Positions 773-61,865 of a stretch of DNA of 64,000 nucleotides are shown piece by piece (within the stretch, counting starts at the first letter, position 1; each line of letters opens with the position of its first letter). The position numbers were made by a program, and so were the translations under genes. A model generated the notes under the pieces. It was not told the DNA's origin. It ran no database searches and was given only the letters and a program-made list of their open reading frames with translations. Source of the stretch: a bacterium (GTDB lineage: Bacteria > Patescibacteriota > Minisyncoccia > Minisyncoccales > CG1-02-41-26); NCBI GenBank assembly GCA_021162885.1, contig JAGGXV010000022.1, forward strand, positions 57,571 through 121,570, in the 5' to 3' direction.

Positions 773-1650
773 AATAATATCTTGATGGCCCCCCTTAATT
801 TAGCCGATCTTGATCGAGGATTTTTTTGAACTTCTTTAATTGAGGGCCTAATTGGTTTTTTGGTTAAAATCTTCAGAAGACCTTTTTTACTGTTTTCTTT
901 AAAAAAGTTTTTGACAATTCTATCTTCCAAGGAGTGAAAAGAAATAACCACTATCCTCCCTTTTTTGTCTAAAACTTCCAGAGCTTGAGGCAGCGCTTTT
1001 TTAAAATTTTCCAACTCATCATTAACCACAATCCTCAAGGCCTGGAAGGTTTTTCTGCTAAAACGCTTGCTACCGATAATCTCTACTAACTGTCCCGTGC
1101 TCTCTATTGTTTTTTTCTTTCTGGTTTCAACGATTTTTCTGGTAATCCTTCTGGCAAATCTCTCTTCGCCATACTCTCGTAAAATCCTCTCAATTTCCTT
1201 TTCTGGCCATCTATTTACAATTTCTCCAGCCGTCAAATTTTTAATTTTTAATTTTTCATTTTTATTTTCTTTACGGTATCTCATATCAAGGGGCTCCTCT
1301 CTCTGGAAACTGAATCCTCTACCTGATTTTTCCAAATGCCAACTTGACAATCCTAGGTCAAATAAGATTCCATTAACCGGCCCAAAGTTATGTTCTCGAA
1401 CAATCTTTTTAAGATTCGTATAAGAATCGTTCACTAAAATCAACCTGTTTGAAAATTGAAAATTGAAAATTGAAAATTTTTTATAGAGTTCTGGGTCAAT
1501 CTCAATCCCTAAAACCTTACCTTTAGGAGCATTCTTTTCAAGAATTTCTTTACTATGACCCCCCAACCCAAAGGTAGCATCGATAAAATTCTCATTCGGC
1601 TTAACATCAAGATATTCTATAACTTCTTTTTGTAAAACTGGAATGTGCAT
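769..1650 (-). CDS. rsmH: 16S rRNA (cytosine1402-N4)-methyltransferase RsmH
   Basis: MHIPVLQKEVIEYLDVKPNENFIDATFGLGGHSKEIL... is a typical RsmH N-terminus with the SAM-binding motif. The track ORF extends to 1794 through the GC-rich element; the likely true start is the ATG at 1650. Contains an in-frame (GAAAATT)x4 insert encoding FSIFNFQFS at 1447-1476. Confidence 0.85.
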   Translation of the reverse strand: MHIPVLQKEVIEYLDVKPNENFIDATFGLGGHSKEILEKNAPKGKVLGIEIDPELYKKFSIFNFQFSNRLILVNDSYTNLKKIVREHNFGPVNGILFDLGLSSWHLEKSGRGFSFQREEPLDMRYRKENKNEKLKIKNLTAGEIVNRWPEKEIERILREYGEERFARRITRKIVETRKKKTIESTGQLVEIIGSKRFSRKTFQALRIVVNDELENFKKALPQALEVLDKKGRIVVISFHSLEDRIVKNFFKENSKKGLLKILTKKPIRPSIKEVQKNPRSRSAKLRGAIKILL

Positions 1651-1689
1651 AACTCCACGAATTACGAATTTATATGAATAAATATACGA

Positions 1690-1850
1690 ATGGCTTCTGA
1701 GGGCGAGGCAGGCCTGCTGACCATCGACCTCTCGGAGGCCTGCTGGCTTGGTCCCCGCTGAAAGCGGGGCAGCAGGCCGAGAGTGGAGCGGCAATTTTTC
1801 GCTGGAAAAAATTGACCGCGTCCGATAGGCAGTAGGGCCCTGCCGAGCCC
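1690..1850. repeat. GC-rich MITE-like structured element, copy E1 (homologous to 60684-60812)
   Basis: About 160 nt at roughly 65% GC in a 30% GC genome. Begins gaatggcttctgagggcgaggcagg and ends ctgccgagcccttcttac (terminal inverted repeat). Internal hairpins include ctcggaggcctgctgg...ccccgctgaaagcgggg...cagcaggccgagag. Sits between mraZ and rsmH. Confidence 0.5.
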
Positions 1851-10694: not shown

Positions 10695-10768
10695 TTTAAC
10701 TCAACTTTTTATAATTCCTATTATTTTTCACGATCGTAAACAACGGTAGAATTGATATTTTAGTTATT

Positions 10769-11665: not shown

Positions 11666-11707
11666 ATTCATTCAATAATTCGAGACGATCGCACCGAATT
11701 ACAGAAT

Positions 11708-12280: not shown

Positions 12281-12440
12281 AAAAACTATCTCTCTTTTTC
12301 TATAATTGCAGACGATCGTCGCAAATAATAGAATAACTTTAGTTTAATTATAACCTATAACTAATTATTAACATACAACTATACAAAAATATAAGATAAA
12401 AATATAAGGTTAGAAATACAAAAATTAAAAAAATAAAAAA

Positions 12441-15331: not shown

Positions 15332-15886
15332 TTAAAAATTTTGCAATACCCTAACAATTGTCTCCCCAAATTTCCTTGCTGCTTCCGGCCCGTTTGCCGT
15401 AATAATTTTTCCATCAATTGCTACTTGCTCAGCTTGATAATTTGCCCCTTCCTCTTTTAAAATTTTAACCGCTGATTTGTCTAATCTGCTTGACCAAACC
15501 GTTGCCTTTTTGTCTTTTAAAACCCCAGCCCTTGCTAATATTGCTGGTGCAATACAAATTGCTCCAAGAAGTTTATTTTGAGAAACCGCTTCCTTGGCAA
15601 TTTTATGACATCTTTCATCGTTTATATATTTTGCTGCCCCCGATCCTCCAACAAAAACAATTACATCAAAATCTCGAACATCCAATTCATCTAAACTTAA
15701 ATCTACATTTACCACTCCCCCATAACTCCCTATCGCTTTCTCTTTTTTACTGCTCACAATTTTAACTTGAGCTCTTGCTGCTAAAAAAATACTCCGAGGA
15801 ATAAAAAGTTCTTCGTCTCGAAAATCCTGCTGAGCAATTATCATCGCAATTTTTTTATTGTTTTTTTTGTTTGAAAATTGAGTCAT
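15332..15886 (-). CDS. DJ-1/PfpI family protein (class I glutamine amidotransferase-like)
   Basis: KKIAMIIAQQDFRDEE...DVIVFVGGSGA...LLGAICIAPAILARAG (nucleophile-elbow Cys). Track N-terminal extension (EFSIFNYQFS) is a translation of the GAAAATT repeat; start at MTQFSNKK (about 15886) or MIIAQ (about 15844). Confidence 0.75.
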   Translation of the reverse strand: MTQFSNKKNNKKIAMIIAQQDFRDEELFIPRSIFLAARAQVKIVSSKKEKAIGSYGGVVNVDLSLDELDVRDFDVIVFVGGSGAAKYINDERCHKIAKEAVSQNKLLGAICIAPAILARAGVLKDKKATVWSSRLDKSAVKILKEEGANYQAEQVAIDGKIITANGPEAARKFGETIVRVLQNF

Positions 15887-15914
15887 TGAAAATTGATAAT
15901 TGAAAATTGAAAAT

Positions 15915-16964
15915 TCACTGTAAATATTTCGCTCTAGCAATGTTATGTTCTCTCAAAGTTTTACTAAAGATGACTTCTCCTTCAGGTGTTGTCAAATAGA
16001 ACCAATAAGGACTGTCTTTATAATAAACTGCGGCTCGGATAGCTTCAAGTCCAGGATTACAAATGGGGCCAAGGGGCAAGCCATAATATTTATAGGTATT
16101 CCAGGGAGAATCAATATTCATATCTTCTTTAGTTAACTCCGAGCTGGCTTTACCAGTCAGATAGGTTAAAGTCGCGTCAACTTGCAAAGGCCAACCACTT
16201 CTTAATCTTTTCCACAAAATTCCAGCTGCTACTTGACGATCCTCATAACTTTTTATTTCGTCTTCCAATAAAGAAGCCATAGTTAAAACTTCATGTAAAG
16301 TTTTACCCTGAGAGGCAATTTCTTCTCGTAAATCAGGGGTAATTTTTTGCTCGAAATTCTGAAGCATTTTTCTGACAATCTCCCCTACTGGTGCTGCCGG
16401 ATCAATCTCATAAGTATCGGGGAAAAGATAACCTTCCAAACTCACCTCATTTGGTTTCTCTTTTAAAAATTCAAACTCCTCAGAAAAATCCATTGGCTGA
16501 GGCAAGTCAGAAACCTTCGTATAATCAACGGCCGGGAACCCAGTCACCTCAAAAAGTTCTTCGGCCTGAAACATACCCTTGTTTTCAAAATACCAACCAA
16601 TATCTCTCAAATCCCAACCTTCAATAATAGTAATTTTTTCTTTAATTGTGTCGCCCTGAGTTAACTTGTTGAGTATCTGAGGAATATTCATTGACGAGGT
16701 CAAATTATATTTGCCTGCTTGAAGTTTTCTGGCTGAGTTCAACGCCAAAGCAGATAACTCAAACAAAAATCTGGATTTAACCAGGCCTTGTTTTTCCAAA
16801 TCAGAAGCAATGTCTCGCAAACTTTGCCCTTTTTCAACTGAAAAGAGAATTTCAGTTTGGGTTCCGGGTTCTTTGGGCAAATAAATTCCTTGCCAAAGCC
16901 AAGCCCCAATCAAAATCAAAACTAAAATAATTAGAATATAATATTTTTTAGAAAATTTTCTCAT
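15915..16964 (-). CDS. mltG: endolytic murein transglycosylase MltG (YceG family)
   Basis: 349 aa. N-terminal TM. YLFPDTYEI and SPWNTYKYYGLPLGPICNPGLEAIRAAVY are YceG-like motifs. Confidence 0.8.
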   Translation of the reverse strand: MRKFSKKYYILIILVLILIGAWLWQGIYLPKEPGTQTEILFSVEKGQSLRDIASDLEKQGLVKSRFLFELSALALNSARKLQAGKYNLTSSMNIPQILNKLTQGDTIKEKITIIEGWDLRDIGWYFENKGMFQAEELFEVTGFPAVDYTKVSDLPQPMDFSEEFEFLKEKPNEVSLEGYLFPDTYEIDPAAPVGEIVRKMLQNFEQKITPDLREEIASQGKTLHEVLTMASLLEDEIKSYEDRQVAAGILWKRLRSGWPLQVDATLTYLTGKASSELTKEDMNIDSPWNTYKYYGLPLGPICNPGLEAIRAAVYYKDSPYWFYLTTPEGEVIFSKTLREHNIARAKYLQ

Positions 16965-16977: not shown

Positions 16978-17625
16978 TTACCTGTCACCTGTCACCAGAG
17001 GCACAAAAGCAAAGCCAGGATATTCTTTTGATTTAAATTTCATTTCTGAAATTTTCTCAAAAAGCCAGATGGAAGAACCAATCGGACTGACAATCTTGCC
17101 ACCAATTTTCAATTGAGTTTTCCACGCTGGAGGTATCTCTTTTGCCTCAGCCGAACACAAAATTTTATCAAAAGGAGCCTCTTTCCAATAACCCTTGGAG
17201 CCATCAGCACAAATAAATTCAACAATCCCCTTCTCTATATAATTATACTTAGAAACATTTCTTTCTCCAAACTCTTTTAATTCAGGCACTATTTCAATCG
17301 CAATCACCTTTCCGTTTCCGTCAATTTTTGATTTTAGCTCTTTTTCGCTCACTACGTAAGCGAGAAGAGCTGTTGTCCAGCCCGAGCCAGCCCCTACATC
17401 CAAAACTTTATCACCTTTTTCTGGAGCCAAAAGCTCTATCATAAAAGCCACCACCAATGGCTGAGAAATGGTTTGACCGTAACCAATAGACAAAGCCTCA
17501 TTCAATTCAGCCAAATCTTTCATATCCTCTGGCAAAAAATCAACTCTTTTTATTTTGCGGAAAGCTTCAATAATCCTTGGAGTCCGTAACCACCCTCCTT
17601 CAATTAAAGAATCAATTAGTCTCAT
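16978..17625 (-). CDS. pcm: protein-L-isoaspartate O-methyltransferase
   Basis: RVDFLPEDMKDLAELNEALSIGYGQTISQPLVVAFMIELLAPEKGDKVLDVGAGSGWTTALLA is the PIMT signature. Confidence 0.85.
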   Translation of the reverse strand: MRLIDSLIEGGWLRTPRIIEAFRKIKRVDFLPEDMKDLAELNEALSIGYGQTISQPLVVAFMIELLAPEKGDKVLDVGAGSGWTTALLAYVVSEKELKSKIDGNGKVIAIEIVPELKEFGERNVSKYNYIEKGIVEFICADGSKGYWKEAPFDKILCSAEAKEIPPAWKTQLKIGGKIVSPIGSSIWLFEKISEMKFKSKEYPGFAFVPLVTGDR

Positions 17626-17630
17626 TTCTA

Positions 17631-17963
17631 TTATTTGCGACGATCGTCGAGTTTTATAGAATTATCTTTAGGATAAAAAGAGGATTTTTTGATGATGATT
17701 TTGTAAATACTTTCGATAAAGTCGCCCCCGGCATACCCGACGATAAAAGCCAGAGCGGGAGTAAAAAAACTCTGATACGTAAACCCAATTTCCTTAACAG
17801 CAGCCGCTACCGATATTCCGATTATCCCCGATAAAAAACTCATCCCCAAAAAATATTTCAAGTTAAAAGGAACATCTTTATAGCTAAATTGATGCTTAAT
17901 AAACCCAATTAATCCCCTTACCACTCCGCCAAAAAATCCAGCGATTAAAACAGAAAAATACAT
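17631..17963 (-). CDS. hypothetical small membrane protein
   Basis: 110 aa with 3 TM helices (GxxxG-rich). Confidence 0.4.
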   Translation of the reverse strand: MYFSVLIAGFFGGVVRGLIGFIKHQFSYKDVPFNLKYFLGMSFLSGIIGISVAAAVKEIGFTYQSFFTPALAFIVGYAGGDFIESIYKIIIKKSSFYPKDNSIKLDDRRK

Positions 17964-21617: not shown

Positions 21618-21701
21618 TGGGTGTGAGTGGAGTCGAACCACCTGGGCTCAGAGAGCTATGGTTTTACAGACCATCCCCGCGCCGTACGGGACTACACACC
21701 C
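21618..21701 (-). tRNA. tRNA-Tyr (anticodon GTA), long variable arm
   Basis: Minus strand GGGTGTGTAGTCCCGTACGGCGCGGGGATGGTCTGTAAAACCATAGCTCTCTGAGCCCAGGTGGTTCGACTCCACTCACACCCA. Anticodon stem ATGGT/ACCAT with loop CTGTAAA. Confidence 0.8.
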
Positions 21702-23904: not shown

Positions 23905-24039
23905 CCCTCATCCAATATTTATTTTCAAAGAACTCACTTACAGATTTCCCGTAAGTTTTTTTTATTCCCAATCTCCTAAATCCAGAATAGTTTACCCCAT
24001 TAGAAATGGAATTTCTAAGCAGAGTAAATTCCAAACTTG

Positions 24040-39868: not shown

Positions 39869-39869
39869 T

Positions 39870-39965
39870 TATCAATTATCAATTATCAATTTCCAATTTT
39901 CAATTTTCAATCATTGTTTAAAGTTAATTCGTTGAAAATTGGTCATTGAAAATTGAGAATTTTAA
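39870..39965. repeat. heptamer inverted-repeat element (AATTATC/ATTTTCA...TGAAAAT)
   Basis: taattatcaattatcaattatcaatttccaattttcaattttcaatcattgtttaaagttaattcgttgaaaattggtcattgaaaattgagaatttta. Confidence 0.6.
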
Positions 39966-41805: not shown

Positions 41806-43167
41806 ATGAAGTATTTTATCATTACATACGGCTGTCAAATGAACAAATCGGACTCTGAACGAATTGCTGCTGTTTTAGAAAAAATCGGTTACAAAAATGC
41901 CTCAAAGATAGATGAGGCAGATTTAATTGTGGTTAATATGTGCTCTGTCAGGCAATCAGCAGTTGATAGAGTTTACGGACTTCAACCAATGTTTAAAACT
42001 CTAAAAACTAAAAACTACAAACTACAAACTATTTTAACTGGTTGTATTCTAAAAAAAGATAGAAAAAAATTTATTGAATATTTTGATTATATTTTAAATA
42101 TCAAAAATCTAACAAGATGGTCTAAAGTCCTTGCTACCCCAAACTCACTTAACCAATCCACGATCGTTAGTGATTTAAGTCAATCTGGAAATTACCTTAA
42201 AATTAAGCCAGAATATTCATCTTTTCCAATAGGCTATGTGCCTATTTCTACTGGCTGTAATAACTTCTGTTCTTATTGCGTTGTCCCCTATACTCGGGGC
42301 CCCGAGATTTGTCGGCCGGTAAAAGATATTATATCTGAAGTAAGAGATTTAGTGAAAAAAGGATATAAAGAGATTTGGTTGTTGGGACAAAATGTTAATA
42401 GTTACAACTCCCAAATATCCATAAATGTGAATTCGCGAATATCCGCGAATAAAATTCGTGAAGATTCACGAGATATAAATTTTCCAAAACTCTTAAAAAT
42501 AATCAATAATATTCCGGGGGATTTTTGGATTAGGTTCACTTCTTCCCATCCGAAAGATTTTTCTGATGAATTAATTGAAGCAATGTCCCGCTGCAAAAAA
42601 ATAACTCCCTATTTAAATCTGCCAGTCCAGTCAGGAGATAACGAAATCTTGAAAAAGATGAATCGGAATTATACAGTTGAGTATTATAAAAATTTAGTTA
42701 AAAAAATCCGTCAGACATTCGCAAAAATTCGTGGTAAATCCGTGTCTATTAGTATTTCAACCGACATCATTGTTGGGTTTCCGGGCGAAACTAAAAAACA
42801 ATTCAAAAATACTGTTCGCCTTTTCAAAGAAATCAAATTCGATATGGCTTACATCGCCCAATACTCTCCTCGTCCCGGGACTGCTGCCTTTAAGATGAAA
42901 GACGATGTCACAAAAGAAAAAAAGAGAGAAAGAGAGAAAATTTTAACTGAGGTTTTAAAGAAAACCGCTCTGGCAAAAAATAAAAAATTAATCGGCAAAA
43001 CAATCACCATCTTGCCAAGTGAATATAAAAATGGATTTTTAATCGGCAAATCTTTTCATTACAAAACGGTAAAATGGGTGGGCTCAAAAGATCTAATCGG
43101 CAAATTCGTTAGAGTAAAAATCACCGATGCTCAACCATGGGGATTAAAAGGAAAATTACTAAAATAA
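41806..43167 (+). CDS. miaB: radical-SAM methylthiotransferase MiaB (MiaB/RimO family) with TRAM domain
   Basis: MTTase N-domain; CNNFCSYCVVPYTRG (CxxxCxxC). miaA is adjacent. Contains in-frame ATTCGCGAAT-family insert (NSRISANKIREDSRD). Confidence 0.8.
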   Translation: MKYFIITYGCQMNKSDSERIAAVLEKIGYKNASKIDEADLIVVNMCSVRQSAVDRVYGLQPMFKTLKTKNYKLQTILTGCILKKDRKKFIEYFDYILNIKNLTRWSKVLATPNSLNQSTIVSDLSQSGNYLKIKPEYSSFPIGYVPISTGCNNFCSYCVVPYTRGPEICRPVKDIISEVRDLVKKGYKEIWLLGQNVNSYNSQISINVNSRISANKIREDSRDINFPKLLKIINNIPGDFWIRFTSSHPKDFSDELIEAMSRCKKITPYLNLPVQSGDNEILKKMNRNYTVEYYKNLVKKIRQTFAKIRGKSVSISISTDIIVGFPGETKKQFKNTVRLFKEIKFDMAYIAQYSPRPGTAAFKMKDDVTKEKKREREKILTEVLKKTALAKNKKLIGKTITILPSEYKNGFLIGKSFHYKTVKWVGSKDLIGKFVRVKITDAQPWGLKGKLLK

Positions 43168-46184: not shown

Positions 46185-47753
46185 TTATTTTTGCTTTACT
46201 AATAATTTTTTAAGAAGTTGAAGAATTATTTGTGGATTTGCCTTGCCTTTGGTTTCTTTCATCACTTGACCAACCAAAAATTGCAAAGCGGCTTCTTTTC
46301 CTTTTTTATAATCCTCCACTGGTTTTTTATTTTTATCAATCACTTCTCCAACTATTTTCTCCAACTCTTCTTCATCACTTATTTGTCTTAACCCCTTATC
46401 TTTCACAATCTGGGAAGGGTCTTTGCCAGTGCCAAACATTTCTTTTAATAAAGTTTTGGCAATTTTACTTGAGATTTCGCCAAGATAAATCATACTGACA
46501 AATTCAGCAAAATTTTCAGCAGTAATTAAAAAGTTCTTGTCACTAACAGAAACTCCCTTCAAAAGTCCCTGGAGATCAGTTGTTATATAATTTGAGGCCA
46601 ACTTAACTAATTTTTTAAGTTCTCTATTCTTAACTTTCTCTTTAAATCTCTTTTCTTTAACCCAATTAGTCAATTCTGAAATCACTTTTTCAAAGTATTC
46701 TCCCAAATCTTTCTGAGAAACATAAAGTTCTATTTCTTTATCAGAAAGCCCGTATTCCTTTTCAAACCTCTCTCTCCTCGATTGAGGTAATTCGGGAATT
46801 TCCATTTTAATCTCTTTTAAAAACTCTTTTTTAAGATTTAGAGGTGGCAAGTCAGGCTCTGGAAAATAGCGATAATCATAGGCCTCTTCCTTTTCCCTTT
46901 GAGCCAATGTTATTTCTTTTTTCTCGTCCCAGCCCCTGGTTTCCTGAACAATTTTTTTGCCTTTTTTTAAAATTTCACTCTGTCTTTTAATCTCATATTC
47001 AATTGCCTTCTCTACTGCCCTTAAAGAATTCAAATTTTTTATTTCCACTTTCGTCCCCAATGTTCGCGAATTTGCACGAATTTTATTCGCGGATATTCGC
47101 GAATTTTCATCCGTGGGCATTAGCGAGATATTTACTTCCGCCCTCATCTCCCCTTTCTCCATATTAGCTCCAGAAACACCTAAATATCTTAAAATCAGTT
47201 GCAACTCATGAACAAATGCGCGAGCTTCTGCAGCTGATTCAATATCCGGCTCGGTTACCAACTCCATTAAAGGAATTCCAGCTCTGTTAAAGTCCACTAA
47301 AGAATAATCTTTTCCTTCAGGATGTATTAGTTTTCCAGTATCTTCTTCCAAATGAATGCGTTGAATTCTTATCTTCTTTAATTTTTTATTTTTAATTTTA
47401 TTTTTTGAGATTTGAGATTTGAGATTTGAGATTTCAAGATAGCCCCCTTTGCCCAACGGAGCATTATACTGTGATATTTGATATCCTTTTGGTAGGTCAG
47501 GATAAAAATAATTTTTCCTTTCAAAATGGGTTGCTTTTTGAATCTGACAATTCAAAGCTATCGCAGTCTTTATCGCTTTTCTTACAGCAGTTTTGTTAAT
47601 AACCGGTAATGTTCCTGGATGTGCCACGCAGATTGGACAGATGTTCACATTCGGTTGAGTTTCATCAGGATCATTTTCACAAGAACAAAACATCTTGGAT
47701 TTTGTCCTAAGTTCCACATGTATTTCCAGACCAATTGTTGGCTTATAGTTCAT
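46185..47753 (-). CDS. gatB: aspartyl/glutamyl-tRNA amidotransferase subunit B
   Basis: MNYKPTIGLEIHVELRTKSKMFCSC...; contains two in-frame repeat inserts (GAGATTT array and ATTCGCGAAT family, ENSRISANKIRANSR). Confidence 0.9.
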   Translation of the reverse strand: MNYKPTIGLEIHVELRTKSKMFCSCENDPDETQPNVNICPICVAHPGTLPVINKTAVRKAIKTAIALNCQIQKATHFERKNYFYPDLPKGYQISQYNAPLGKGGYLEISNLKSQISKNKIKNKKLKKIRIQRIHLEEDTGKLIHPEGKDYSLVDFNRAGIPLMELVTEPDIESAAEARAFVHELQLILRYLGVSGANMEKGEMRAEVNISLMPTDENSRISANKIRANSRTLGTKVEIKNLNSLRAVEKAIEYEIKRQSEILKKGKKIVQETRGWDEKKEITLAQREKEEAYDYRYFPEPDLPPLNLKKEFLKEIKMEIPELPQSRRERFEKEYGLSDKEIELYVSQKDLGEYFEKVISELTNWVKEKRFKEKVKNRELKKLVKLASNYITTDLQGLLKGVSVSDKNFLITAENFAEFVSMIYLGEISSKIAKTLLKEMFGTGKDPSQIVKDKGLRQISDEEELEKIVGEVIDKNKKPVEDYKKGKEAALQFLVGQVMKETKGKANPQIILQLLKKLLVKQK

Positions 47754-47887
47754 ACAAAAATGAATGACTAATTAACCTAATCAATATCAATGGCCAATGT
47801 CTAATGACTAAATGACCAAAATTAAATAAAGATTAGACATTTAGGAATTGGGATTTGATTAGAAATTAGCCATTAGAAATTAGGAAT

Positions 47888-48550
47888 TTACTTTTTCTTC
47901 CTCTTGTATTGTTTCATTATCTCAACTCCCAAGCTTGTCCCAATGATGTCAGCTCCCGCTTCAACCATCATTAACAAATCTTTGTAAGTTCTGATCTTTC
48001 CAGAGGCCTTTATTTTCAACCCCGGCGCCCCCTCTCTCATAATTTTTAAATGCTTGGCTTTTTCTTTTAATTCAATATGCTCTAAGGGGTCTTTCTCAGT
48101 AGCTGTTTTCACACAAAAAGCACCAGCTTTCTTAACTATTTCTGAGGCCTTTTTGATCTCTTCATCAGTTAAATATCCCGAACCAATAATTACTTTAGTG
48201 GGTAAAATTTTGCAGATTTCCTTCAAATCCTTTAAGATATCGTCGTATCTTCCATATTTCATATCAATAATATTCATTACAATATCCAATTCATCTGCTC
48301 CATCTTTTTTGGCTTTTTTGCACATTTCCACTCTTTTTGAATGAGAACTTAACCCCATTGGTGGATCAATTAGAACAACCGTTTTAACACCCGCGCTCTT
48401 CAACTCATTATGAACCAACCTAACCCATTCTGGATTGCAACAAACTCCCCGAAATTTATATTTTTTAGCCTCTTGACAGGTTTTTTTAATATCTTTCTCT
48501 CTCGCTTTTGGGTCTATATTTGTATGGTCAATAATTTTTGCTGGATTCAT
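47888..48550 (-). CDS. deoC: deoxyribose-phosphate aldolase
   Basis: Schiff-base lysine region FCVKTATE and ...KIKASGKIRT...GADIIGTSLG. Confidence 0.7.
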   Translation of the reverse strand: MNPAKIIDHTNIDPKAREKDIKKTCQEAKKYKFRGVCCNPEWVRLVHNELKSAGVKTVVLIDPPMGLSSHSKRVEMCKKAKKDGADELDIVMNIIDMKYGRYDDILKDLKEICKILPTKVIIGSGYLTDEEIKKASEIVKKAGAFCVKTATEKDPLEHIELKEKAKHLKIMREGAPGLKIKASGKIRTYKDLLMMVEAGADIIGTSLGVEIMKQYKRKKK

Positions 48551-48593: not shown

Positions 48594-49307
48594 CTAACTT
48601 ATTCGTGAAATTCGTGGTAAATTAGTGGATATTCGCGATTTAATGTCTTTAAAAACTTCTTTAATAGACCTTTCTCCATTTATCGTATATACATTTTCAA
48701 ACCGAGAAGGTAAAATTTTGTAAATTTGCCAAACTTTTTTAAGTTTTTCTTTCACCTCAAAAAGGGTTCTATCCGTCCCCCTTTTTTGAATCCTCTTTAA
48801 ACAAACTTCGGGAGAAACCACTAAAATAAAAGTTAAATCAGGCAGTAAAAACTCATCATTTATTTTAATCAACCAATTTAAATCTAATCCTTCTGCTGTT
48901 CCATAAGCAAAGCTTGAAAAGAAATAACGGTCAGAGACAACAATTTTATTTCTTTTTAAAGCTGGAATTATTACATTTTTCTGGTGCCAATCTCTATCTT
49001 TAGCAAATAACTCTTGAAGTTCTTGTGAAGAAATTTTTTCTTTTTTAGTTAAGATTTTCTCGATTTTCTTTCCTGCTTTCGAATCTTTTGTCGGTTCTTT
49101 TGTTTTTAAAACCTGATATCCTTTCTTTTTTAAAAATCCGGTTAAAAGTTCAACCTGAGTTGACTGCCCCGACCCATCCAGTCCCTCAAAAACAACAAAC
49201 CTCGCACTTTTTACCCGACGCAAAATAGGCTTACCATCCAATGAAATAAACCATGTTTTTTGAAAAAGGTACGGGGTAAGTTTTCTCAGGTAAGAGTTTT
49301 TAATCAT
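48594..49307 (-). CDS. tmk: thymidylate kinase
   Basis: FVVFEGLDGSGQSTQ P-loop. C-terminal tail ...NLPRISRIS is encoded by ATTCGCGAAT-family repeats; N-terminal 34 aa may be an extension. Confidence 0.8.
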   Translation of the reverse strand: MIKNSYLRKLTPYLFQKTWFISLDGKPILRRVKSARFVVFEGLDGSGQSTQVELLTGFLKKKGYQVLKTKEPTKDSKAGKKIEKILTKKEKISSQELQELFAKDRDWHQKNVIIPALKRNKIVVSDRYFFSSFAYGTAEGLDLNWLIKINDEFLLPDLTFILVVSPEVCLKRIQKRGTDRTLFEVKEKLKKVWQIYKILPSRFENVYTINGERSIKEVFKDIKSRISTNLPRISRIS

Positions 49308-54762: not shown

Positions 54763-54902
54763 TTGTTTTAAAAAAGCCCTCTGGGGCTCTGATCTAATAA
54801 TAAACCCCTACTTGAACTTTGTCAAGATCGATTTTAGAAAGGTAAAGAAGATTTAGAAATTAAAAATTTAGGATTTCGAAATTCCTTTTACAAAGCGAAA
54901 GG

Positions 54903-57900
54903 CTATATATCCAAGTTCTTTACTTTTTTAGCATGAACCTGAATAAACTTTTTCCTCGGCAAAACTTCTTTCCCCATCAAAATGTCAAAAATATGATCAG
55001 CGGCTTTGGCGTCTTCAATAGTTACTTGAAGTAATATTCGATTCTCTGGATTCATAGTCGTTTCCCAGAGTTCTTCGGGGTTCATCTCTCCCAACCCCTT
55101 GTAGCGCTGAATATTAATACTCTTTTCTTCTTTCTTCGTCTTTTTAATATCAGATAAAATCTCTTGTTTGTCTTGCTCAGTATAAGCATATTCTGTTCTT
55201 TTCCCTACTTGGATTTTATATAAGGGTGGTTGAGCAATATAAAGGTATCCTTTTTCAACCACTTCTCTGAAATAGCGGAAAAACAAAGTTAAAAGAAGCG
55301 TCCTTATATGGGCACCATCGGTATTCTTAAGAAGAACTCCACCAGGACTGGCAATAAAATTCTGATCTCCTAAAACAGAAAGGTCATAGACAAATTTGTC
55401 TTTAATATTTTTTAGCTTTTTAATGCTTTTTACTTTAAGTCCGACGAAATCTTGAGAAATGGGTTGGATATATTTTCCAATAACTTTTTTATAATTTACT
55501 TCTTTGAGAAGATACATTTCTAATCTTTCAGCATCTTTATGATCCTGCCAAACATTTTTAGTTTTCCATAAATAATCCACTGTAGATATTGATAAATCAT
55601 AAGATTTAAAATTAGACCTGATAAGCTTCCCGTCTTTGCTGTAATGGTTTTTGGTTTGATTAACACCATAAGCTGGAAATATTCCCCATTGCCGAAAAAT
55701 AGTAAGTATTCCTTCAATCAATCTCTGCGAAGACAAACGCCAGCCATAAATTGCTTTAGTTTTACTGGTTTTTTTACTTGTCCAAACTATAATAAAGCCA
55801 TCGCTCTGAAGCAATCCTTTAAGGAGTGCCGTTTGAATTTCTCTTTTTGTATTGAAAAATATATCTGGAATAAACTTCTCATTTGCTCTCTTGCCCAGTA
55901 CTCCAAGCTTTGCAAGAAGTAACCGAAACTCAAAAGAATGAAAGTGTAACTGAATATTATTCTCTTTCTTATAATCTAAAATAGGTTTAGCATTAAACTT
56001 TTCTTTTATAATCCGGGAAAGATTTTTAATATATTTACTTTCTTTTTCTTTGTTTAGAGAAAATGCAAACCTATTTGGATTCTTATCTTCGGGTATTGCA
56101 CAGCCATCTCCTAAAAACCAGCCAATTAAATACGCTAAATCTTTATCTAGCTTAAATTCAGTTTTAATTTTGTGAGTATGATTTCCGTAATAAAATTTGG
56201 CGGATTCAGGAAATTTATTTCCTTTCCAATCTTCTAAAGGAATATAAACATTACAATTGATTCGATAAAAATCCTGATTAATTTGGTTTAAATAATTTCG
56301 GAGGAGAGCGAATCTTGGCATTACATTGTCAAATTTCTCCTCCCATTGCTGGATTACTCCTCTTCCTACTTTAACTAAATTCTCCATTTTTAATCTTGAA
56401 ATTTGGTTTTTTACTCTTTCTTGTTTTAACTTCTGAAAATAATATTTTGGAATCTCTATCCAAGCAGAAGAAGGAATTTTTTTTAGTACTTCCTTTTTCA
56501 CCTTTACAGAAACATTTTTTGGTTTTTCCTTTAAAAGAACACTTTTTAAATCAATAATAAAATCTTTATCTTGACGCGGAAATAATCTTGGAAATATTAA
56601 GAGATCTCCCCTCTTAATATCTTTTGTTTTCTTAGTTCTAATCTTTTTGTTTTCATAAACATAAACGCTATGACAATCAGTTACTTTAACAGGGTAACCA
56701 CAATAAGTTTTAATTTCATATAAATCTGTCCTTAAGGGATGACGGATCGTCTGTAAAATTTCTTTAAGTTCTAGTTTTTTTGTCTTCAGATTGCAAGTTA
56801 AAACCTTGTATTTTGTGGTATCGTCGCAATTTTCAATAAACTCGCCGGCTTGGGTGCAAAAGAAACTCTTCTTTTCTTTGTCATAAAGGAAAATTGAAGT
56901 ATCTCCGGTTATTGAGTCCGCGTCAGTCATTATTATAATTCGGTGATACCGCAGTTTGTTTATGTCAAAATCTTGAGCGATGGCCGTACCCAAAGCAATG
57001 ATTAAAGATTTTAATTCTTGGGAAGCTAAAATTTTATCTAACCTCGCTCTTTCAACATTCAAAATCTTTCCTTTTAAAGGCAGAATTGCTTGAAACGTTC
57101 TGTCTCTGGCTTGTTTTCCACTGCCACCAGCCGAATCACCTTCAACAATATAAAGCTCAGAGTCCTCAGGATTTTTAGAAGAGCAATCAGCTAATTTTCC
57201 GGGCAAAGTTAAACCTTCCAAAACTCCTTTTCTTAAAACTGTAGTTCTGGCTGCCTTGGCCGCTCTCCGAGCTCTGGCTGCTAAAAGACAATTCTCAATA
57301 ATCGCTTTGGCATCTTGGGGATTTTTTTCCAGAAAATCAGCTAAACCTTCTGAGAAAACGCTATCAACAACGGTCTTGGCTTCAGGGTTACCAAGTTTTG
57401 CCTTGGTCTGACCTTCAAATTGAGGTTCTTTTAATTTTACCGAAATTGCTGCCACCAATCCCTCTCTAACATCTCCCCCACTAAAATTTTCCTCTTTTTC
57501 GGAAAGGTAGCCATTTTTTCTGGCATAATCATTCAGGACTCGAGTCAAAGCAGTCCGGAAACCAGTCAAATGAGTCCCACCCTCGCCTGTAAAAATATTA
57601 TTGACAAACCCTTCTTCAAGAGCCTCCATCTCTTTAGCATATTGAAAAGCGACCTCAACTAAAATTCCTTCTTTCTCTCCTCGAGTATAACAAATGTTCT
57701 CGTGACGAACTTCCCCGTCCCCAATTAAATATTTAATGTAAGAGCGAAGTCCTCCTTCAAAATAAAAGTTATATAAAGTTGGTGGAGATTCTCGCTCGTC
57801 CCGAACACTTATTTTAACTCCCGGAGTTAGATAGGCCTGTTGACGGAGATGATTTAAAATCCTTTCCGAGTTAAAGTAAATACTCCTGAAAATCTCTGGA

Positions 57901-58457
57901 TCAGGTTCAAAAATGACGGTGGTACCTGACTTTTTACACTTCCCAATTTTCTTTACTTTTGTGATTGCCTTGCCTCGAGAGTATTCTTGAGCATATCTCT
58001 CTCCCTGCCGACAAACCTCCACTCTCATATACTTTGATAAGGCACAAACAACTGAAACCCCCACGCCGTGCAAACCACCAGCTACCTGATAGGCTTTTCC
58101 TCCAAATTTCGCTCCAGCATGCAAAGTGGTCATTACTGTTTCTAAAGCAGATTTACCAGTTTGAGGATGCTTCTCAACCGGAATCCCTCTGCCATTGTCT
58201 TCACATCTAACTCTATTATCTGGAAGAAGAGTAATCTTTATTTCGTTGGCGTAACCAGCCACGCATTCGTCAATTCCGTTATCCAATACTTCCCAGATTA
58301 AGTGGTGTAAACCTTCGGGACCTGTTGAACCGATATACATTCCCGGCCTTTTTCTCACCGGCTCCAAACCCTTTAAGACATATATATCCTCGGCTGTGTA
58401 TGACTCCTTTTTAGTTTTCTTTTTTGCTTTTTTAGAAGGCATGGTTTTAATTTTCAA
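54903..58457 (-). CDS. gyrB: DNA gyrase subunit B precursor containing a 531-aa intein
   Basis: GHKL ATPase N-terminus ...GLHHLIWEVLDNGIDE... Toprim ...RYHRIIIMTDAD | intein | TDGAHIRTLLLTLFFRY... C-terminus. Extein total about 653 aa. Confidence 0.9.
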   Translation of the reverse strand: MKIKTMPSKKAKKKTKKESYTAEDIYVLKGLEPVRKRPGMYIGSTGPEGLHHLIWEVLDNGIDECVAGYANEIKITLLPDNRVRCEDNGRGIPVEKHPQTGKSALETVMTTLHAGAKFGGKAYQVAGGLHGVGVSVVCALSKYMRVEVCRQGERYAQEYSRGKAITKVKKIGKCKKSGTTVIFEPDPEIFRSIYFNSERILNHLRQQAYLTPGVKISVRDERESPPTLYNFYFEGGLRSYIKYLIGDGEVRHENICYTRGEKEGILVEVAFQYAKEMEALEEGFVNNIFTGEGGTHLTGFRTALTRVLNDYARKNGYLSEKEENFSGGDVREGLVAAISVKLKEPQFEGQTKAKLGNPEAKTVVDSVFSEGLADFLEKNPQDAKAIIENCLLAARARRAAKAARTTVLRKGVLEGLTLPGKLADCSSKNPEDSELYIVEGDSAGGSGKQARDRTFQAILPLKGKILNVERARLDKILASQELKSLIIALGTAIAQDFDINKLRYHRIIIMTDADSITGDTSIFLYDKEKKSFFCTQAGEFIENCDDTTKYKVLTCNLKTKKLELKEILQTIRHPLRTDLYEIKTYCGYPVKVTDCHSVYVYENKKIRTKKTKDIKRGDLLIFPRLFPRQDKDFIIDLKSVLLKEKPKNVSVKVKKEVLKKIPSSAWIEIPKYYFQKLKQERVKNQISRLKMENLVKVGRGVIQQWEEKFDNVMPRFALLRNYLNQINQDFYRINCNVYIPLEDWKGNKFPESAKFYYGNHTHKIKTEFKLDKDLAYLIGWFLGDGCAIPEDKNPNRFAFSLNKEKESKYIKNLSRIIKEKFNAKPILDYKKENNIQLHFHSFEFRLLLAKLGVLGKRANEKFIPDIFFNTKREIQTALLKGLLQSDGFIIVWTSKKTSKTKAIYGWRLSSQRLIEGILTIFRQWGIFPAYGVNQTKNHYSKDGKLIRSNFKSYDLSISTVDYLWKTKNVWQDHKDAERLEMYLLKEVNYKKVIGKYIQPISQDFVGLKVKSIKKLKNIKDKFVYDLSVLGDQNFIASPGGVLLKNTDGAHIRTLLLTLFFRYFREVVEKGYLYIAQPPLYKIQVGKRTEYAYTEQDKQEILSDIKKTKKEEKSINIQRYKGLGEMNPEELWETTMNPENRILLQVTIEDAKAADHIFDILMGKEVLPRKKFIQVHAKKVKNLDI
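55323..56915 (-). mobile_element. GyrB intein with LAGLIDADG homing-endonuclease domain (inserted after the Toprim DAD motif)
   Basis: Intein N-terminus SITGDTSIF... LAGLIDADG motifs LAYLIGWFLGDGCAIPED and LLKGLLQSDGFIIVW. C-terminus ...GVLLKN followed by Thr +1. Confidence 0.7.
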
Positions 58458-58595
58458 TTTACAATTTTCAATTTACAATCAATTCCCAATTTTCAATGAT
58501 TTAATTTCCAAACAAGAATAAACAAAGATTGAAAATTTGGTCATTGAAAATTCATTGAAAATTGGTACTTGAAAATTGAAAATTTACTTACGTAC
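58445..58595. repeat. heptamer inverted-repeat element between gyrB and pheT
   Basis: ttttcaatttacaattttcaatttacaatcaattcccaattttcaatgatt...gattgaaaatttggtcattgaaaattcattgaaaattggtacttgaaaattgaaaattt. Confidence 0.6.
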
Positions 58596-60683
58596 TTCCC
58601 AGGCCGGTCTTTCTTCCAGAGCTTTAATTATTTTTTGATGAATTTTATCAATTTCTCGGGAAGATAAAGTTCTATCTTCGGCTTGATAGATTATATGAAA
58701 AGCAAAATTCTCTTTACCTTCAGGAATTCCTTCGCCTGAGTAAACATCAAAAAGATCAACATCCCGCACCAATTTTCCTCCAGCTGCATTTATAATATTT
58801 AAAACTTCCACTGTTTTCGTCCCAAGGGGAACCAAAACCGCCAAATCTCTAACGGCAGCTGGGTGAACTGAAATTGGCTGATATTCATGTTCCTCACAAG
58901 CAAATTTTTTCAATTTTTCGAAATTAAGATCGAACACAAATACTTTCTCGGCAATCTTTAATTGTTCTAAAATGTTTGGATGAATTTCCCCCAAAAATCC
59001 AATTTCTTTACCATCGATTTTAATTTCGGCACTTTTTTTGGGATGCCATATTCCAAAGTGGGATTCTTCTGGAGTTTGTTGATAATCGTCAAACCAAACA
59101 TTACTAATTCCTAATTTATTAAGCAACAATTCCACTACTCCCTTTAACTCATAAAACCCCTCATTACCTATCCCTTTCCTTGTTAGTACTCCTCCTAACA
59201 TCTTTTTTTCTAAGATTTGAGATTTGCGATTTGAGGCTTGAGACTTCTTAAATGTTTTTCCAATTTCAAAAATTTTAATTTCATCAAAAAATTTTAAGTT
59301 TTCTTTAACATTTTTTAGCAAATTTGGAATCAAACTCGGCCTCAAATATCTGTTAAAAGAACTAATTGGATTTTCTAATTCCACTACCGCTGATTTACGC
59401 TGCCAAAACTGATAAATGCTAATATCTTTTTCACCAATAAAAGAATAATTGTAAATTTCAGAAAATCCTGTCTCTTTTAAAATATCTTTTACATTTTTCT
59501 GCCAAAAAAGCTCTTCATTTTTCTCGGGAGGAATTAAAGCGGCTTGAGGAAAAACTAAAGGGATATTTTCGTAACCATAAATTCTCCCGATTTCCTCAAT
59601 TAAATCTTCCTGAATAGAAACATCTAATCTTCTGGTTGGTACTTCTACTGTTAAAATTTTCAATTTACAATTTTCAATTTTCAAACCTAATGATTTCAAA
59701 ATTCTAATTACTTTTGACTCAGAAATATTAACTCCTAATAATCTTTCAACATACTTTAAATCTAGTTTAACTTTCTTAGGACGGGTTTTCTTTGGATAAA
59801 AATCAACCATTCCTCCAACAATCTTGCCATCGGCTATTTTTTGAACCAAAGAACATACTCTCTTTTGAGCAAAATCAATCAAGTTGAGATCAATCCCGTT
59901 CTCAAAACGCCAGGAAGCATCGGTTTTCAGTTTTAATTTTCGAGAGGCCTTCCGAATTACTCTTGGATTAAAACTAGCCGCTTCAATAATTATATTTTTT
60001 GTCTTATTGTCAATGCCAGTACTCTCGCCTCCTTTTATTCCCGCGATAGCAATTGGCTTTTCCGCATCAGCAATCAGCAAAATATCTTTATCTAAAGTAT
60101 AAGTTTTATCATCTAAGGCAGTAATTTTCTCTCCCTTTTTCGCCCTTCTGACAATTATCTTCTTTTTTTGGATTTGGGATTTGGGATTTAAGCTTTTGAT
60201 TTTATCTAAATCAAAAGCGTGTATCGGCTGTCCGGTTTCTAACATCACATAATTTGTTATGTCAACAATATTGTTGATTGGCTCCAATCCACAAACTTTC
60301 AATCTCTCTTGAATCCACTTCGGCGAAGGTTTCACTTTCACCCCCAAAATTACTTTTGCTGTATAACGCGGGCAATCCTCTTTATTTTCAACTTCAACCC
60401 CAATAAAATCTTTAGCTTTTAAATTTTTATTTTCCTTTATTTCAGAATCTGGAATTTGAAATTTAGAATTTGTAAGAACAGCGCACTCCCGAGCTATTCC
60501 AAGATGAGAAAAACAATCAGGAGCCCGATTGGGTAAAACATCAATGTCTAAAATCCAATCCTTTCCTACACGTTTTACTTCCTCTACTTCAAAACTATGT
60601 AAAGTCAAAATCTCTGCCAATTTCTCAGGAGTTGGCATCTTTCCATTTATATAATCTTTTAACCAGTTATAAGAGAATATCAT
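58584..60683 (-). CDS. pheT: phenylalanyl-tRNA synthetase beta subunit
   Basis: MIFSYNWLKDYI...; B3/4 and B5 domains; carries at least four in-frame heptamer-repeat inserts. Confidence 0.9.
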   Translation of the reverse strand: MIFSYNWLKDYINGKMPTPEKLAEILTLHSFEVEEVKRVGKDWILDIDVLPNRAPDCFSHLGIARECAVLTNSKFQIPDSEIKENKNLKAKDFIGVEVENKEDCPRYTAKVILGVKVKPSPKWIQERLKVCGLEPINNIVDITNYVMLETGQPIHAFDLDKIKSLNPKSQIQKKKIIVRRAKKGEKITALDDKTYTLDKDILLIADAEKPIAIAGIKGGESTGIDNKTKNIIIEAASFNPRVIRKASRKLKLKTDASWRFENGIDLNLIDFAQKRVCSLVQKIADGKIVGGMVDFYPKKTRPKKVKLDLKYVERLLGVNISESKVIRILKSLGLKIENCKLKILTVEVPTRRLDVSIQEDLIEEIGRIYGYENIPLVFPQAALIPPEKNEELFWQKNVKDILKETGFSEIYNYSFIGEKDISIYQFWQRKSAVVELENPISSFNRYLRPSLIPNLLKNVKENLKFFDEIKIFEIGKTFKKSQASNRKSQILEKKMLGGVLTRKGIGNEGFYELKGVVELLLNKLGISNVWFDDYQQTPEESHFGIWHPKKSAEIKIDGKEIGFLGEIHPNILEQLKIAEKVFVFDLNFEKLKKFACEEHEYQPISVHPAAVRDLAVLVPLGTKTVEVLNIINAAGGKLVRDVDLFDVYSGEGIPEGKENFAFHIIYQAEDRTLSSREIDKIHQKIIKALEERPAWEVRK

Positions 60684-60812
60684 GGCGAATAGCTTCTAAG
60701 GACAAGGCAGGTTCGCTCTCCATCGGCCTCTCAGAAGCAGCTGAATACGGTCTCCGGCCGAAGGAAGGAGTCAGCCGCCAAGCGCAGAGCTGACTGCCGA
60801 GTCCTTACTTTA
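60684..60812. repeat. GC-rich MITE-like structured element, copy E2 (homolog of 1690-1850)
   Basis: gaatagcttctaaggacaaggcagg...ctgccgagtccttactttatc. Terminal inverted repeat CTAAGGAC(a/t)(a/c)GGCAG. Internal hairpin gtcagccgccaagcgcagagctgac. Confidence 0.5.
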
Positions 60813-61865
60813 TCAGAATTGTTTTAAAAATCTTAAATCGCCGCTGTAAAATAAACGGATGTCGTTAATTTTATATCGGAGCATAGCCAGTCTGTCCAGA
60901 CCCACTCCGAAAGCAAATCCTTGCCAGTTTTTTGGGTTAATGCCAGCCGCTTTAAAAACATTTGGGTGAACCATCCCCGCTCCCAAAAGTTCAGTCCAGT
61001 TTCCTTTTTTTTCTCCACGAATATCAATTTCAAAACTTGGCTCAGTAAAAGGGAAATAACTTGGTCGCAATCTAATTTCAATTTTGGTTTTAAAAAATCT
61101 TTTTAAAAATTCTTCAATTATTGCTTTAAAGTTTGCTACCGAAACATTTTCGTCAACCATTAAACATTCGAGCTGATAGAACTGAATCTCATGGGAAGCA
61201 TCGGTTGCCTCGTGCCGGAAACATTTTCCTGGGACCACAATCCTCAAAGGAGGACTGTGCTTTTCCATATAACGAATCTGTACCGGACTGGTATGCGTCC
61301 GCAAAAGAAGTTTTTGAAATTTCGAATTTTGAATTTTAAATTTGTTTGGGATTTGGGATTTGTGATTTGGGATTTTTTGGTTGCGAAGCAACCAAAAGGT
61401 GTCCCAAAAATCTCTGGCTGGATGATCTTTGGGAATATTTAAAGCGTCGAAATTGTACCATTCTGTTTCAACCTCCGGTCCCAGAACCACTGAAAATCCC
61501 AACGATTGAAAAATCTCCAAAACTTCTCTCTGAACTAAAGTCAAAGGATGCAAATGGCCAACTCCTAACTTCTTTCCAGGGCGTGTCACATCGATTTTCT
61601 CTTTCTCAATTTTTTGCTTTCTAAGTTTTCCTTGGAGTTCTTTTAATTTCTCTTTTATCATTTCTTCAACCTCCCTTTTTACCAGATTGGCTTCCTTGCC
61701 GAGTTTCTTTTTCTCTTTCTCTGAAAGCCCTTTTAACGAACTAAAAATTCGGCTAATCTCCCCTTTCTTACCCAAATATTTCTTAAAAATCTTGTCCAAT
61801 TCTTTCAAATTCTTGGCTTTTCTTATCTCTTTTTGAGCTCTGGTTTTTAGTTCATTTAAGTCCAT
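60813..61865 (-). CDS. pheS: phenylalanyl-tRNA synthetase alpha subunit
   Basis: ...LLLRTHTSPVQIRYME... class II motifs; in-frame heptamer insert NQKIPNHKSQIPNKFKIQNSKFQK. Confidence 0.9.
   Translation of the reverse strand: MDLNELKTRAQKEIRKAKNLKELDKIFKKYLGKKGEISRIFSSLKGLSEKEKKKLGKEANLVKREVEEMIKEKLKELQGKLRKQKIEKEKIDVTRPGKKLGVGHLHPLTLVQREVLEIFQSLGFSVVLGPEVETEWYNFDALNIPKDHPARDFWDTFWLLRNQKIPNHKSQIPNKFKIQNSKFQKLLLRTHTSPVQIRYMEKHSPPLRIVVPGKCFRHEATDASHEIQFYQLECLMVDENVSVANFKAIIEEFLKRFFKTKIEIRLRPSYFPFTEPSFEIDIRGEKKGNWTELLGAGMVHPNVFKAAGINPKNWQGFAFGVGLDRLAMLRYKINDIRLFYSGDLRFLKQF

Follow-up and report, generated by a model that had tools for sequence, protein, structure and literature searches.

Results

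Heptanucleotide arrays in the window

The region analysed here (the window, 64,000 nt) belongs to contig JAGGXV010000022.1 of assembly GCA_021162885.1 (positions 57,571 to 121,570 of the forward strand), from a bacterium of the Patescibacteriota (Minisyncoccia, Minisyncoccales, CG1-02-41-26), and shows numerous short tandem arrays of 7-nt units, between genes as well as inside them. It has about 35% G+C and contains small and tightly packed housekeeping genes, which include mraZ-rsmH, rplJ/L, trmD, rpsP, rnc, nusB, rpmF, rnhB, dnaE, thrS, miaB/A, gatB, tmk, folD, glyA, rplK, nusG, a gyrB with an intein, and pheS/T. Homologs of PheT and RsmH are labelled as Candidatus Nealsonbacteria, Patescibacteria or Gribaldobacteria by their sources. 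The genome is thus Candidatus Nealsonbacteria-like, of a small-genome bacterium of groundwater type, and a cyanobacterial origin, to which the STRR-like heptamers and a group I intron had pointed, was rejected on the basis of these homologs. A Shine-Dalgarno-like motif precedes only about 6 of 46 native genes, and the upstream regions are A/T-rich (...aaaattATG).

With a strict definition (18 or more matches out of 21 at lag 7), 13 arrays are found, while lags 4-6 and 8-12 give none or one each and 40 order-3 Markov simulations give a mean of 0.025 arrays of period 7, a difference of about 500-fold. Exact runs follow the same distribution: 10 at period 7 and none at all other periods from 4 to 12. 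When imperfect arrays are included, the total is about 26-28, which exceeds the minimum of 18 places proposed in the initial annotation of this DNA, whose coordinates and peptides were all recovered in the sequence. Arrays absent from that annotation lie in rsmH (1233-1268), thrS (38408-38453) and miaB (41996-42033), and in the nusB>rnc (32284-32307), rpmF>nusB (both ends) and deoC>gatB (47754-47893) spacers. Fourteen arrays are in nine housekeeping genes and about 12 in spacers or gene ends. The arrays show the head-to-tail repetition of a short unit (5-11 nt) above chance that is typical of long simple-sequence repeats (SSRs), and also the intergenic preference of that class, since about 12 of 26 arrays are in the approximately 13% of non-coding sequence. 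The coding share (14 of 26, about 87% of the native sequence being coding) is unusually high for long SSRs. No heptamer array is present in a foreign-looking GC-rich island at 23950-30130.

Arrays within housekeeping genes

The rsmH gene, on the minus strand, shows two arrays. Array 1 (1446-1481) is a perfect sense (AATTTTC)4.3 run that reads KFSIFNFQFSN. Its counterpart in T. maritima RsmH (1m6y), aligned without gaps or change in length, is the helix segment ...EEKLKEFSD; the native E-F-S codons, GAATTTTCA, contain the array unit. Array 2 (1233-1268) has AAAAATT-type sense units, reads NKNEKLKIKNL and adds 8 residues to a low-confidence loop in comparison with T. maritima RsmH. In the AlphaFold2 model of RsmH (mean predicted local distance difference test, pLDDT, 84), FSIFNFQFS is the end of a helix with lowered confidence, and residues 121-140 are a loop with reduced pLDDT. 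The rnhB array (33937-33973, minus strand) also reads KFSIFNFQFSN, in this case as 6 additional residues relative to RNase HII 3o3g, and shares with rsmH 1446-1481 an identical run of 32 nt, TTTGAAAATTGAAAATTGAAAATTGAAAATTT, in the same frame.

The trmD array (22160-22189, minus strand) contains sense (AAATCCC)n units and adds 5 residues, relative to TrmD 8byh, between a helix and a strand. On the plus strand, thrS (38408-38453) shows AAAAATC-type units that read QKSKIPIKNQIKNQKL, and miaB (41996-42033) shows AAAAACT/AAACTAC units that read TLKTKNYKLQT. The gatB arrays (47377-47438, minus strand), an (AAATCTC)4.4 run plus an AAAAATT-type run, read LEISNLKSQISKNKIKNKKLK and represent about 13 more residues than in two related genomes (L204 and L205, described below), both of which are devoid of an insert at this site. 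In pheS, a double array (61312-61376, minus strand), of AAATCCC type and then of AAATTYn type, reads KIPNHKSQIPNKFKIQNSKFQK and adds 8 residues to a naturally variable segment in comparison with T. thermophilus PheS.

Four sites are found in pheT, all on the minus strand. The N-terminal site (60455-60485) is a decayed AAATTYY array that reads NSKFQIP. Site i (60166-60189) contains (AAATCCC)n, reads NPKSQIQK and belongs to a 10-residue insert in a loop. Site ii (59651-59685), with the sense sequence TTGAAAATTGAAAATTGTAAATTGAAAATT, reads LKIENCKLKIL in a predicted beta-hairpin, with no length change; it is in GAAAATT orientation and has TGT exactly where TGA would fall, and its native L-K-I codons, TTGAAAATT, contain the array unit. 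Site iii (59213-59243) is a decayed (AAATCTC)n array that reads SQASNRKSQIL in a beta-hairpin loop. The AlphaFold2 model of PheT has a mean pLDDT of 83 and shows both site i (pLDDT near 69) and site iii (near 57) as loops, with loops of reduced pLDDT at residues 161-170 and 481-490 and a confident loop at the N-terminal site.

All coding arrays of the window are free of stop codons on the sense strand, and the frames of the host genes are intact in the window and in a conspecific contig (L001). The 14 arrays in nine genes agree with the initial annotation in that heptamers lie in frame in essential proteins. The description of these arrays as insertions into surface loops holds for most sites: the coding arrays are mostly located in loops, between secondary-structure elements or in variable segments, and the length gains of TrmD (5 residues), RNase HII (6), RsmH array 2 (8) and PheS (8) are at such positions. 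At three sites (FSIFNFQFS of rsmH, IENCKLKIL of pheT site ii, and the pheT N-terminal site) it does not, because there is no length change relative to solved structures or orthologs, and the array overwrites a native helix, hairpin or loop.

Intergenic arrays and hairpin elements

Paired, inverted arrays are found in six or seven intergenic spacers, and five of them fold into long hairpins. Four were folded on the transcribed strand and compared with dinucleotide shuffles. Element E1 (31378-31535), in the rnc>rpsP spacer, starts 4 nt past the stop codon and leaves 7 nt up to the ATG, and its minimum free energy (MFE) is -42.3 kcal/mol (z -4.5). E2 (33325-33444; MFE -35.5 kcal/mol, z -6.3), in the rnhB>rpmF spacer, contains the rnhB stop codon within an arm. 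E4 (39864-39961; MFE -23.8 kcal/mol, z -4.2) begins at the thrS stop codon and stops 9 nt short of the following ATG. E5 (58445-58584; MFE -36.3 kcal/mol, z -4.4), in the pheT>gyrB spacer, has an arm overlapped by the stop codon and reaches to within 2 nt of the ATG. These values bear out the long imperfect hairpins that had been proposed for the intergenic inverted arms. The four elements fill the stop-to-start gap: the 5' arm contains the upstream stop codon or follows it by 0-4 nt, and the next ATG is 2-9 nt past the 3' arm in E1, E4 and E5 and 40 nt past it in E2. The fifth hairpin, in the deoC>gatB spacer (47754-47893), has arms of CTAATnn / nnATTAG units and an MFE of -31.6. In the rpmF>nusB spacer (32733-32989), heptamer arms at 32929-32989 and 32733-32787 flank a core of about 140 nt.

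Other intergenic arrays are single. E3 (38048-38110, plus strand), in the dnaE/thrS gap, is a lone array of left-arm type that ends 9 nt before the thrS ATG. The nusB>rnc array (32284-32307, minus strand) is a (GTTACAA)3.4 run directly 3' of the nusB stop codon. The pfpI array (15871-15918, minus strand), in a single orientation at or over the 5' end of the gene, reads EFSIFNYQFS and creates a false upstream extension of the open reading frame (ORF). As RNA, the single arms (E3 and the pfpI leader) are less structured than their shuffles. False N-terminal extensions had been attributed to heptamers in three genes. This is the case in pfpI and in nusB, where a TTG in the nusB-side arm produces an extension of 5 codons, and not in rsmH, whose extension comes from a GC-rich structured spacer at 1651-1853.

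The left arms of E1, E2, E3 and E5 align colinearly from copy to copy at 84-89% identity, as do the right arms of E1, E2 and E5 (E3 is 89% identical to the left arm of E2). Within one element the complementarity of the two arms is only 74-77%. Because the arm-specific order of units is shared, at least E1, E2, E5 and the half-element E3 appear to be of common descent, which supports the label of miniature inverted-repeat transposable element (MITE)-like for this sub-family of hairpins. Small size (about 100-170 nt), terminal inverted repeats (arms of 55-61 nt) and several homologous copies are also as in MITEs. Other marks of MITEs are not seen: no shared or duplicated flank is present at the boundaries of E1-E5, there is no common core, the loops (7-32 nt) resemble each other neither in length nor in sequence, and no transposase is encoded in the 64-kb window.

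Three further assignments of the intergenic arrays were discarded. As intrinsic terminators they are rejected by the terminator scan, which calls none of the elements, and by their A/U-rich stems of 40-60 bp without a U-tail. Matches to sigma-70 promoters (TTGAAA-N17-GAnAAT) follow automatically from the 7-nt phase; they face outward from both arms, many of them antisense into genes, and that of E3 points the wrong way. A phage origin of the arm sequence was rejected since viral contigs gave no match to the pattern TTGAAAATTGGTNNTTGAAAATTGA.

Comparison with related genomes

The relatives compared are the JGI contig L001, which is conspecific (99.2% identical over 5.7 kb), L002 (80% PheT identity), L204-L206 (71-76%) and L207 (65-69%). 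The close relatives were obtained through exact-protein look-ups; the metagenome scan matches listed are all at or below 62% identity. Between the window and L001 there are point changes and a sole indel of 14 nt, equivalent to two units, in an arm of E5 at 58466-58479. This single observation gives the arrays the whole-unit copy-number variation of long SSRs, and a 14-nt unit step as the sole polymorphism points to slippage rather than transposition.

At orthologous coding sites the units differ. Site iii of pheT, a decayed AAATCTC array in the window, is a perfect (AAATGTC)4 in L002 and AAATCTC x3 plus AAATGTC in L207, and has the same length in all three. The pheT N-terminal site contains (AAGTTCC)4 in L205, (AAATTCC)3.7 in L002, AAATCTC-type units in L207 and further variants in L204 and in the window, each lineage having its own unit, and its length is constant in 30 orthologs, L207 differing by one residue. 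One change present in every unit of a lineage's array indicates that the units are being homogenised, that is, concerted evolution, and arrays of differing units at orthologous sites suggest that the arrays are old and still subject to this process. The initial annotation would have been contradicted by orthologs with the same peptide segments and no nucleotide repeat structure. Segments at the same sites do exist in orthologs; the arrays are kept there, with other units.

Presence and absence of inserts, also suggested there as a comparison, is seen among the more distant relatives: the pheT site i insert is missing in L204, L205 and L206 and present in some other lineages, the GatB site has an insert in some lineages and none in others, and PheS of L002 shows an extra array where the window has none. 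In L207, GC-rich pieces of at least 129 nt are nested in frame inside two arrays, of PheT and GatB (L207 10001-12256 and 18146-19939), and one RsmH ortholog (protein P0147) has a similar GC-rich piece nested in its array. In cyanobacteria, small dispersed repeats land in heptamer arrays, a situation that the nesting in L207 recalls.

The peptide FSIFNFQFS is found in four scattered RsmH lineages and is missing from the closest one (88% identity). In a PheT tree (quick neighbour-joining on gap-free columns, without support values), sequences with NCKLKIL at site ii fall in no fewer than five separate places, and site i inserts appear in several separated branches. Recurrence of both peptides would not need transfer, because both start at native codons that contain the unit (GAATTTTCA and TTGAAAATT).

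The pheT>gyrB spacer, 126 nt long in the window, is shorter in L002 (62 nt) and L204 (46 nt), absent (0 nt) from L205 and L206 and longer in L207 (146 nt); the relatives are too distant to define events of presence or absence of the whole element. The L002 element is closer to the paralogous E2 (88.5%) than to the orthologous E5. The spacer of L204 contains only a short direct array, and that of L207 is a 146-nt hairpin whose arms are made of 9-nt units; more stop-to-start hairpins are found elsewhere in L207. The load of period-7 arrays is also unequal, with 17 arrays in 22 kb of L207 versus 2-3 in L205 and L206.

Distribution of the unit in other bacteria

The heptamers had been tentatively ascribed to a mutational mechanism or element of this lineage. 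This idea does not survive the wider comparison: (AATTTTC)3 is present in at least 120 stretches from many phyla, which include Bacteroidota, Thermoanaerobaculia, many Patescibacteria lineages, cyanobacteria, Planctomycetes and Clostridia. Among the matches listed, it is mostly intergenic, often beside start codons or in inverted pairs. In other phyla, the 35 (AATTTTC)n arrays spanned by an ORF are all in the stop-free orientation. Among periods 5-10, period 7 is also the dominant one in unrelated pheT loci that amount to about 1 Mb. A special role of AATTTTC as a cross-phylum unit, through a sequence-specific mechanism or horizontal spread, was dropped because viral contigs contain two control heptamers of matched composition just as often (37x and 40x, versus 39x for the AATTTTC array). 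The wide occurrence suggests a general tendency of bacterial DNA to form heptamer repeats rather than a mechanism dedicated to AATTTTC.

Other features of the region

The island at 23950-30130 shows a G+C content of 0.44-0.47 versus about 0.35 elsewhere, and contains small minus-strand ORFs with strong GGAGG ribosome sites. Perfect TTGACA-N17-TATAAT sites are located near 30140-29950 (two found by the scan and a third by eye). The ORF 26721-27005 matches the CRISPR-associated protein Csx3 (PF09620, E 5e-30), and a duplication of about 160 nt is present at 24045-24205 and 25201-25360 (96-99% identical). An rRNA operon at 24-30 kb, suggested by the higher GC, was rejected on the basis of no Rfam match and no 16S motif in this foreign island.

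Two GC-rich spacers fold strongly: 1651-1853 (mraZ>rsmH, MFE -90) and 60684-60812 (pheS>pheT, MFE -48). Motifs common to both include GAGAGGyCGATGG...CCTGCCTyGyCCTyAGAAGC, and neither spacer matches Rfam. The relatives have just 4-8 nt between pheS and pheT, which suggests that the spacer of the window is an inserted element or an unknown RNA.

A second repeat family, with the palindromic decamer ATTCGCGAAT, is found in miaB (42428-42475), gatB (47055-47105), the 3' end of tmk (48600-48645) and the island (25860-25900). The miaB and gatB copies share 31 identical nt in the same frame (NSRISANKIR), and the gatB site is also an insert hot spot in relatives. A 38-nt palindrome, TTTCTATAATTGCAGACGATCGTCGCAAATAATAGAAT, has four copies (10715-10752, 11670-11707, 12297-12334 and 17625-17662); the copy at 17625 abuts the pcm start codon and two others are 15-20 nt upstream of a start, and the palindrome may be an operator or processing site.

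A group I intron (Rfam RF00028, 63100-63347) lies within a tRNA gene at 63030-63400 on the minus strand. ARAGORN finds this split tRNA only after removal of about 63092-63341, with an uncertain anticodon. The ORFs 21027-21641 and 62296-62982 are paralogous (26% identity, E 6e-10) and both adjoin tRNA genes; the second shows an N-terminal helix-turn-helix Pfam match and the first has no Pfam match. They may encode homing-endonuclease-like proteins.

The gyrB gene (54903-58442) encodes a GyrB of about 1180 residues with an intein, versus about 650 residues in relatives. Contig L001 (7571-9313) carries about 1.7 kb extra at about 58195-58278 of the window, which looks like a presence/absence polymorphism of an intein. 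Upstream of secE (54789-54902), a conserved promoter-like TTGACAAA-N17-TAATAT is followed by a GGGCT/AGCCC hairpin, also in L002 and L204-L207; in L207 a heptamer array lies between the gyrB stop codon and this site.

Discussion

Relationship to known repeat systems

Over-representation of heptamer SSRs, together with the proposal of slippage (Mrazek et al., 2007), is described in PMC4679880 and PMC4692102, and examples are the TAACTGA repeats of Beggiatoaceae (PMC4679880) and the GGGAATC / GGGGAYT repeats of Xanthomonas and Nostoc (PMC4692102). The arrays of the window have the defining features of this long SSR class, which includes the short tandemly repeated repetitive (STRR) sequences of cyanobacteria: 7-nt units repeated in tandem far more often than by chance, numerous short arrays (3-6 units) at dispersed places, enrichment per base between genes, arrays that often end a few nt before a start codon, Shine-Dalgarno sites rare nearby, a stop codon in one orientation that limits the coding orientation, and slippage as the proposed mechanism. 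They differ from it in that the host is a reduced Patescibacteria genome (no report that links heptamer repeats with Patescibacteria was found in the literature searched), about half of the arrays are inside essential genes instead of hypothetical ORFs or the ends of proteins, no single unit dominates among several related A/T-rich ones, arrays are paired in inverted orientation into spacer-filling hairpins, and orthologous coding sites show concerted evolution.

Other classes fit less well. Rickettsia palindromic elements (RPEs; reviewed in PMC10969869) likewise lie in frame in unrelated genes, metabolic or housekeeping, of a reduced genome, where the fold and function of the protein can accommodate them. 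However, RPEs are palindromes of about 100-150 bp with a conserved peptide and are treated as mobile, whereas the coding pieces of the window are single-orientation runs of 20-65 nt that differ in their unit, originate in native codons and in some cases take the place of native sequence. MITEs, repetitive extragenic palindromic (REP) sequences and Correia elements, including the cyanobacterial Nezha MITE, resemble the hairpins in their size, in their several copies between co-directional genes and in their inverted arms, transcribed into hairpins and homologous between copies. The elements of the window depart from them in lacking a target-site duplication, a conserved core or loop and, within the 64 kb, a partner transposase; their arms are tandem arrays that change by unit steps, and relatives have equivalent hairpins of other units, including 9-nt ones. 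Contingency loci share a slippage-prone SSR in coding sequence with a unit that is not a multiple of three, but they switch the frame of a dispensable gene, while rsmH, trmD, rnhB, thrS, miaB, gatB, pheS and pheT are essential hosts in which a frameshift would be lethal, and no frameshifted allele is seen in L001.

Origin of the arrays

The arrays are probably heptanucleotide SSRs of the long class driven by slippage in place. An array would start from a native 7-nt unit, such as those in the E-F-S codons of rsmH and the L-K-I codons of pheT, and replication slippage would then make it grow, shrink and become homogeneous. Homogenisation without a change in length would probably occur by transient misalignment that copies a neighbouring unit. 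Slippage and misalignment together would keep an array repeat-like for a long time while the sequence of its unit drifts, which would explain why orthologous sites contain different units. A coding array would survive selection if its sense strand is free of stop codons, if its net effect on length is divisible by three and if the site tolerates a hydrophilic low-complexity segment; such sites would mostly be surface loops, which are probably indel hot spots across the clade. Between genes, the transcript of an inverted pair would form an A/U-rich hairpin, about 100-170 nt long, which takes up the whole stop-to-start spacer. The E1/E2/E5/E3 sub-family has probably spread by copy-and-paste, for example by recombination or non-autonomous transposition. 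The predicted effects of the arrays are most likely a combination of neutral filler, intercistronic RNA structure and unstructured A/U-rich leaders; RNase III processing and translational coupling are, like this structure and these leaders, candidate functions only.

Several points weigh against this origin. Slippage alone leaves unexplained the asymmetric order of units per arm that three elements share, and this order, together with the likeness of the L002 pheT>gyrB element to the paralogous E2, indicates that some copy-and-paste process is needed. Homogenisation that is safe for the frame needs 21-nt steps or length-neutral templated substitution, neither of which is seen directly. The unequal load of L207 and of L205 and L206 could reflect a lineage-specific factor or a mobile agent. 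Finally, the recurrence of the PheT peptides is read from a quick tree that lacks support values.

The alternatives differ in what they take as primary. The hairpins may be selected RNA elements (RNase III sites, protectors of transcript ends or stems for translational coupling) in which the repeats are secondary, a reading that we consider possible and rather less than probable. In its favour, elements fill the stop-to-start spacer exactly, several such hairpins exist in L207, Shine-Dalgarno sites are missing from most native genes, and rnc is encoded in the window; moreover, the pheT>gyrB hairpin of L207 is kept with another unit and period (9 nt), which suggests that both arms changed together. 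However, L205 and L206 are devoid of a pheT>gyrB spacer and L204 has only the short direct array, so that the hairpin seems dispensable there, the 14-nt change in one arm of E5 has no matching change in the other, and the A/U-rich stems without a U-tail are unlike intrinsic terminators. It is unlikely that all arrays are the footprint of one mobile miniature inverted-repeat element, the coding arrays being in-frame fragments in the manner of RPEs. The arms that are more alike between copies than complementary within a copy, the identical 32-nt array in the unrelated rsmH and rnhB, the nearness of the L002 spacer element to a paralogous copy, the patchy distribution among orthologs and the unequal load of related genomes would all be expected from such an element. 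Against it, neither a target-site duplication, nor related loops, nor a transposase, nor a viral match of the arm pattern was found in the sequences examined; the coding arrays are runs of single orientation and not palindromes, they begin at native codons that contain the unit, orthologous sites are equal in length and differ in unit, and the sole polymorphism seen is a two-unit step.

We are more doubtful of a peculiarity of replication or repair in this lineage, such as a lost or altered mismatch repair system or polymerase, that makes the heptamer arrays and some of 8-9 nt, rewrites the same loops and builds hairpins as the intercistronic signals of the clade. That the coding segments are old lineage-specific loops with an incidental 7-nt periodicity is highly improbable: many orthologs do have segments at these sites, with a near-constant length at the PheT N-terminal site in 30 of them, but the periodicity, often perfect, is found in independent lineages, as (AAGTTCC)4, (AAATGTC)4 and (AAATTCC)3.7, an incidental pattern would not be regenerated repeatedly, and the strict arrays exceed the simulation by far. 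Repeats can mislead assemblers, a general concern with nothing specific to these arrays, and an artefact of metagenome assembly is scarcely credible, as the same arrays are present in independent assemblies (the JGI contig L001, and a 142.7-kb NCBI contig that encodes an identical RsmH) and the reading frames of nine essential genes are intact.

Biological meaning

The arrays, which probably grew in place by slippage while one sub-family of hairpins was also copied, extend the poorly understood class of bacterial heptamer repeats to Patescibacteria. They also provide a clear natural example of microsatellite-type concerted evolution in essential genes, in which a loop of PheT, PheS, RsmH or GatB is made of a unit that differs by lineage. 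For annotation, the arrays make false ORF extensions and odd low-complexity inserts, and the same peptide would arise repeatedly from native codons; the inserts would then be convergent (homoplastic) and would affect alignments and phylogenies of the host proteins. The stop-to-start hairpins are candidate intercistronic RNA signals in a group mostly without Shine-Dalgarno sites. The differences in load between sister genomes may be a handle on the fidelity of replication and repair in organisms not yet grown alone. If a lineage-specific peculiarity of repair were involved, array load would switch on and off between sister lineages, and repeat turnover would be a major ongoing source of loop and spacer evolution in these ultra-small genomes.

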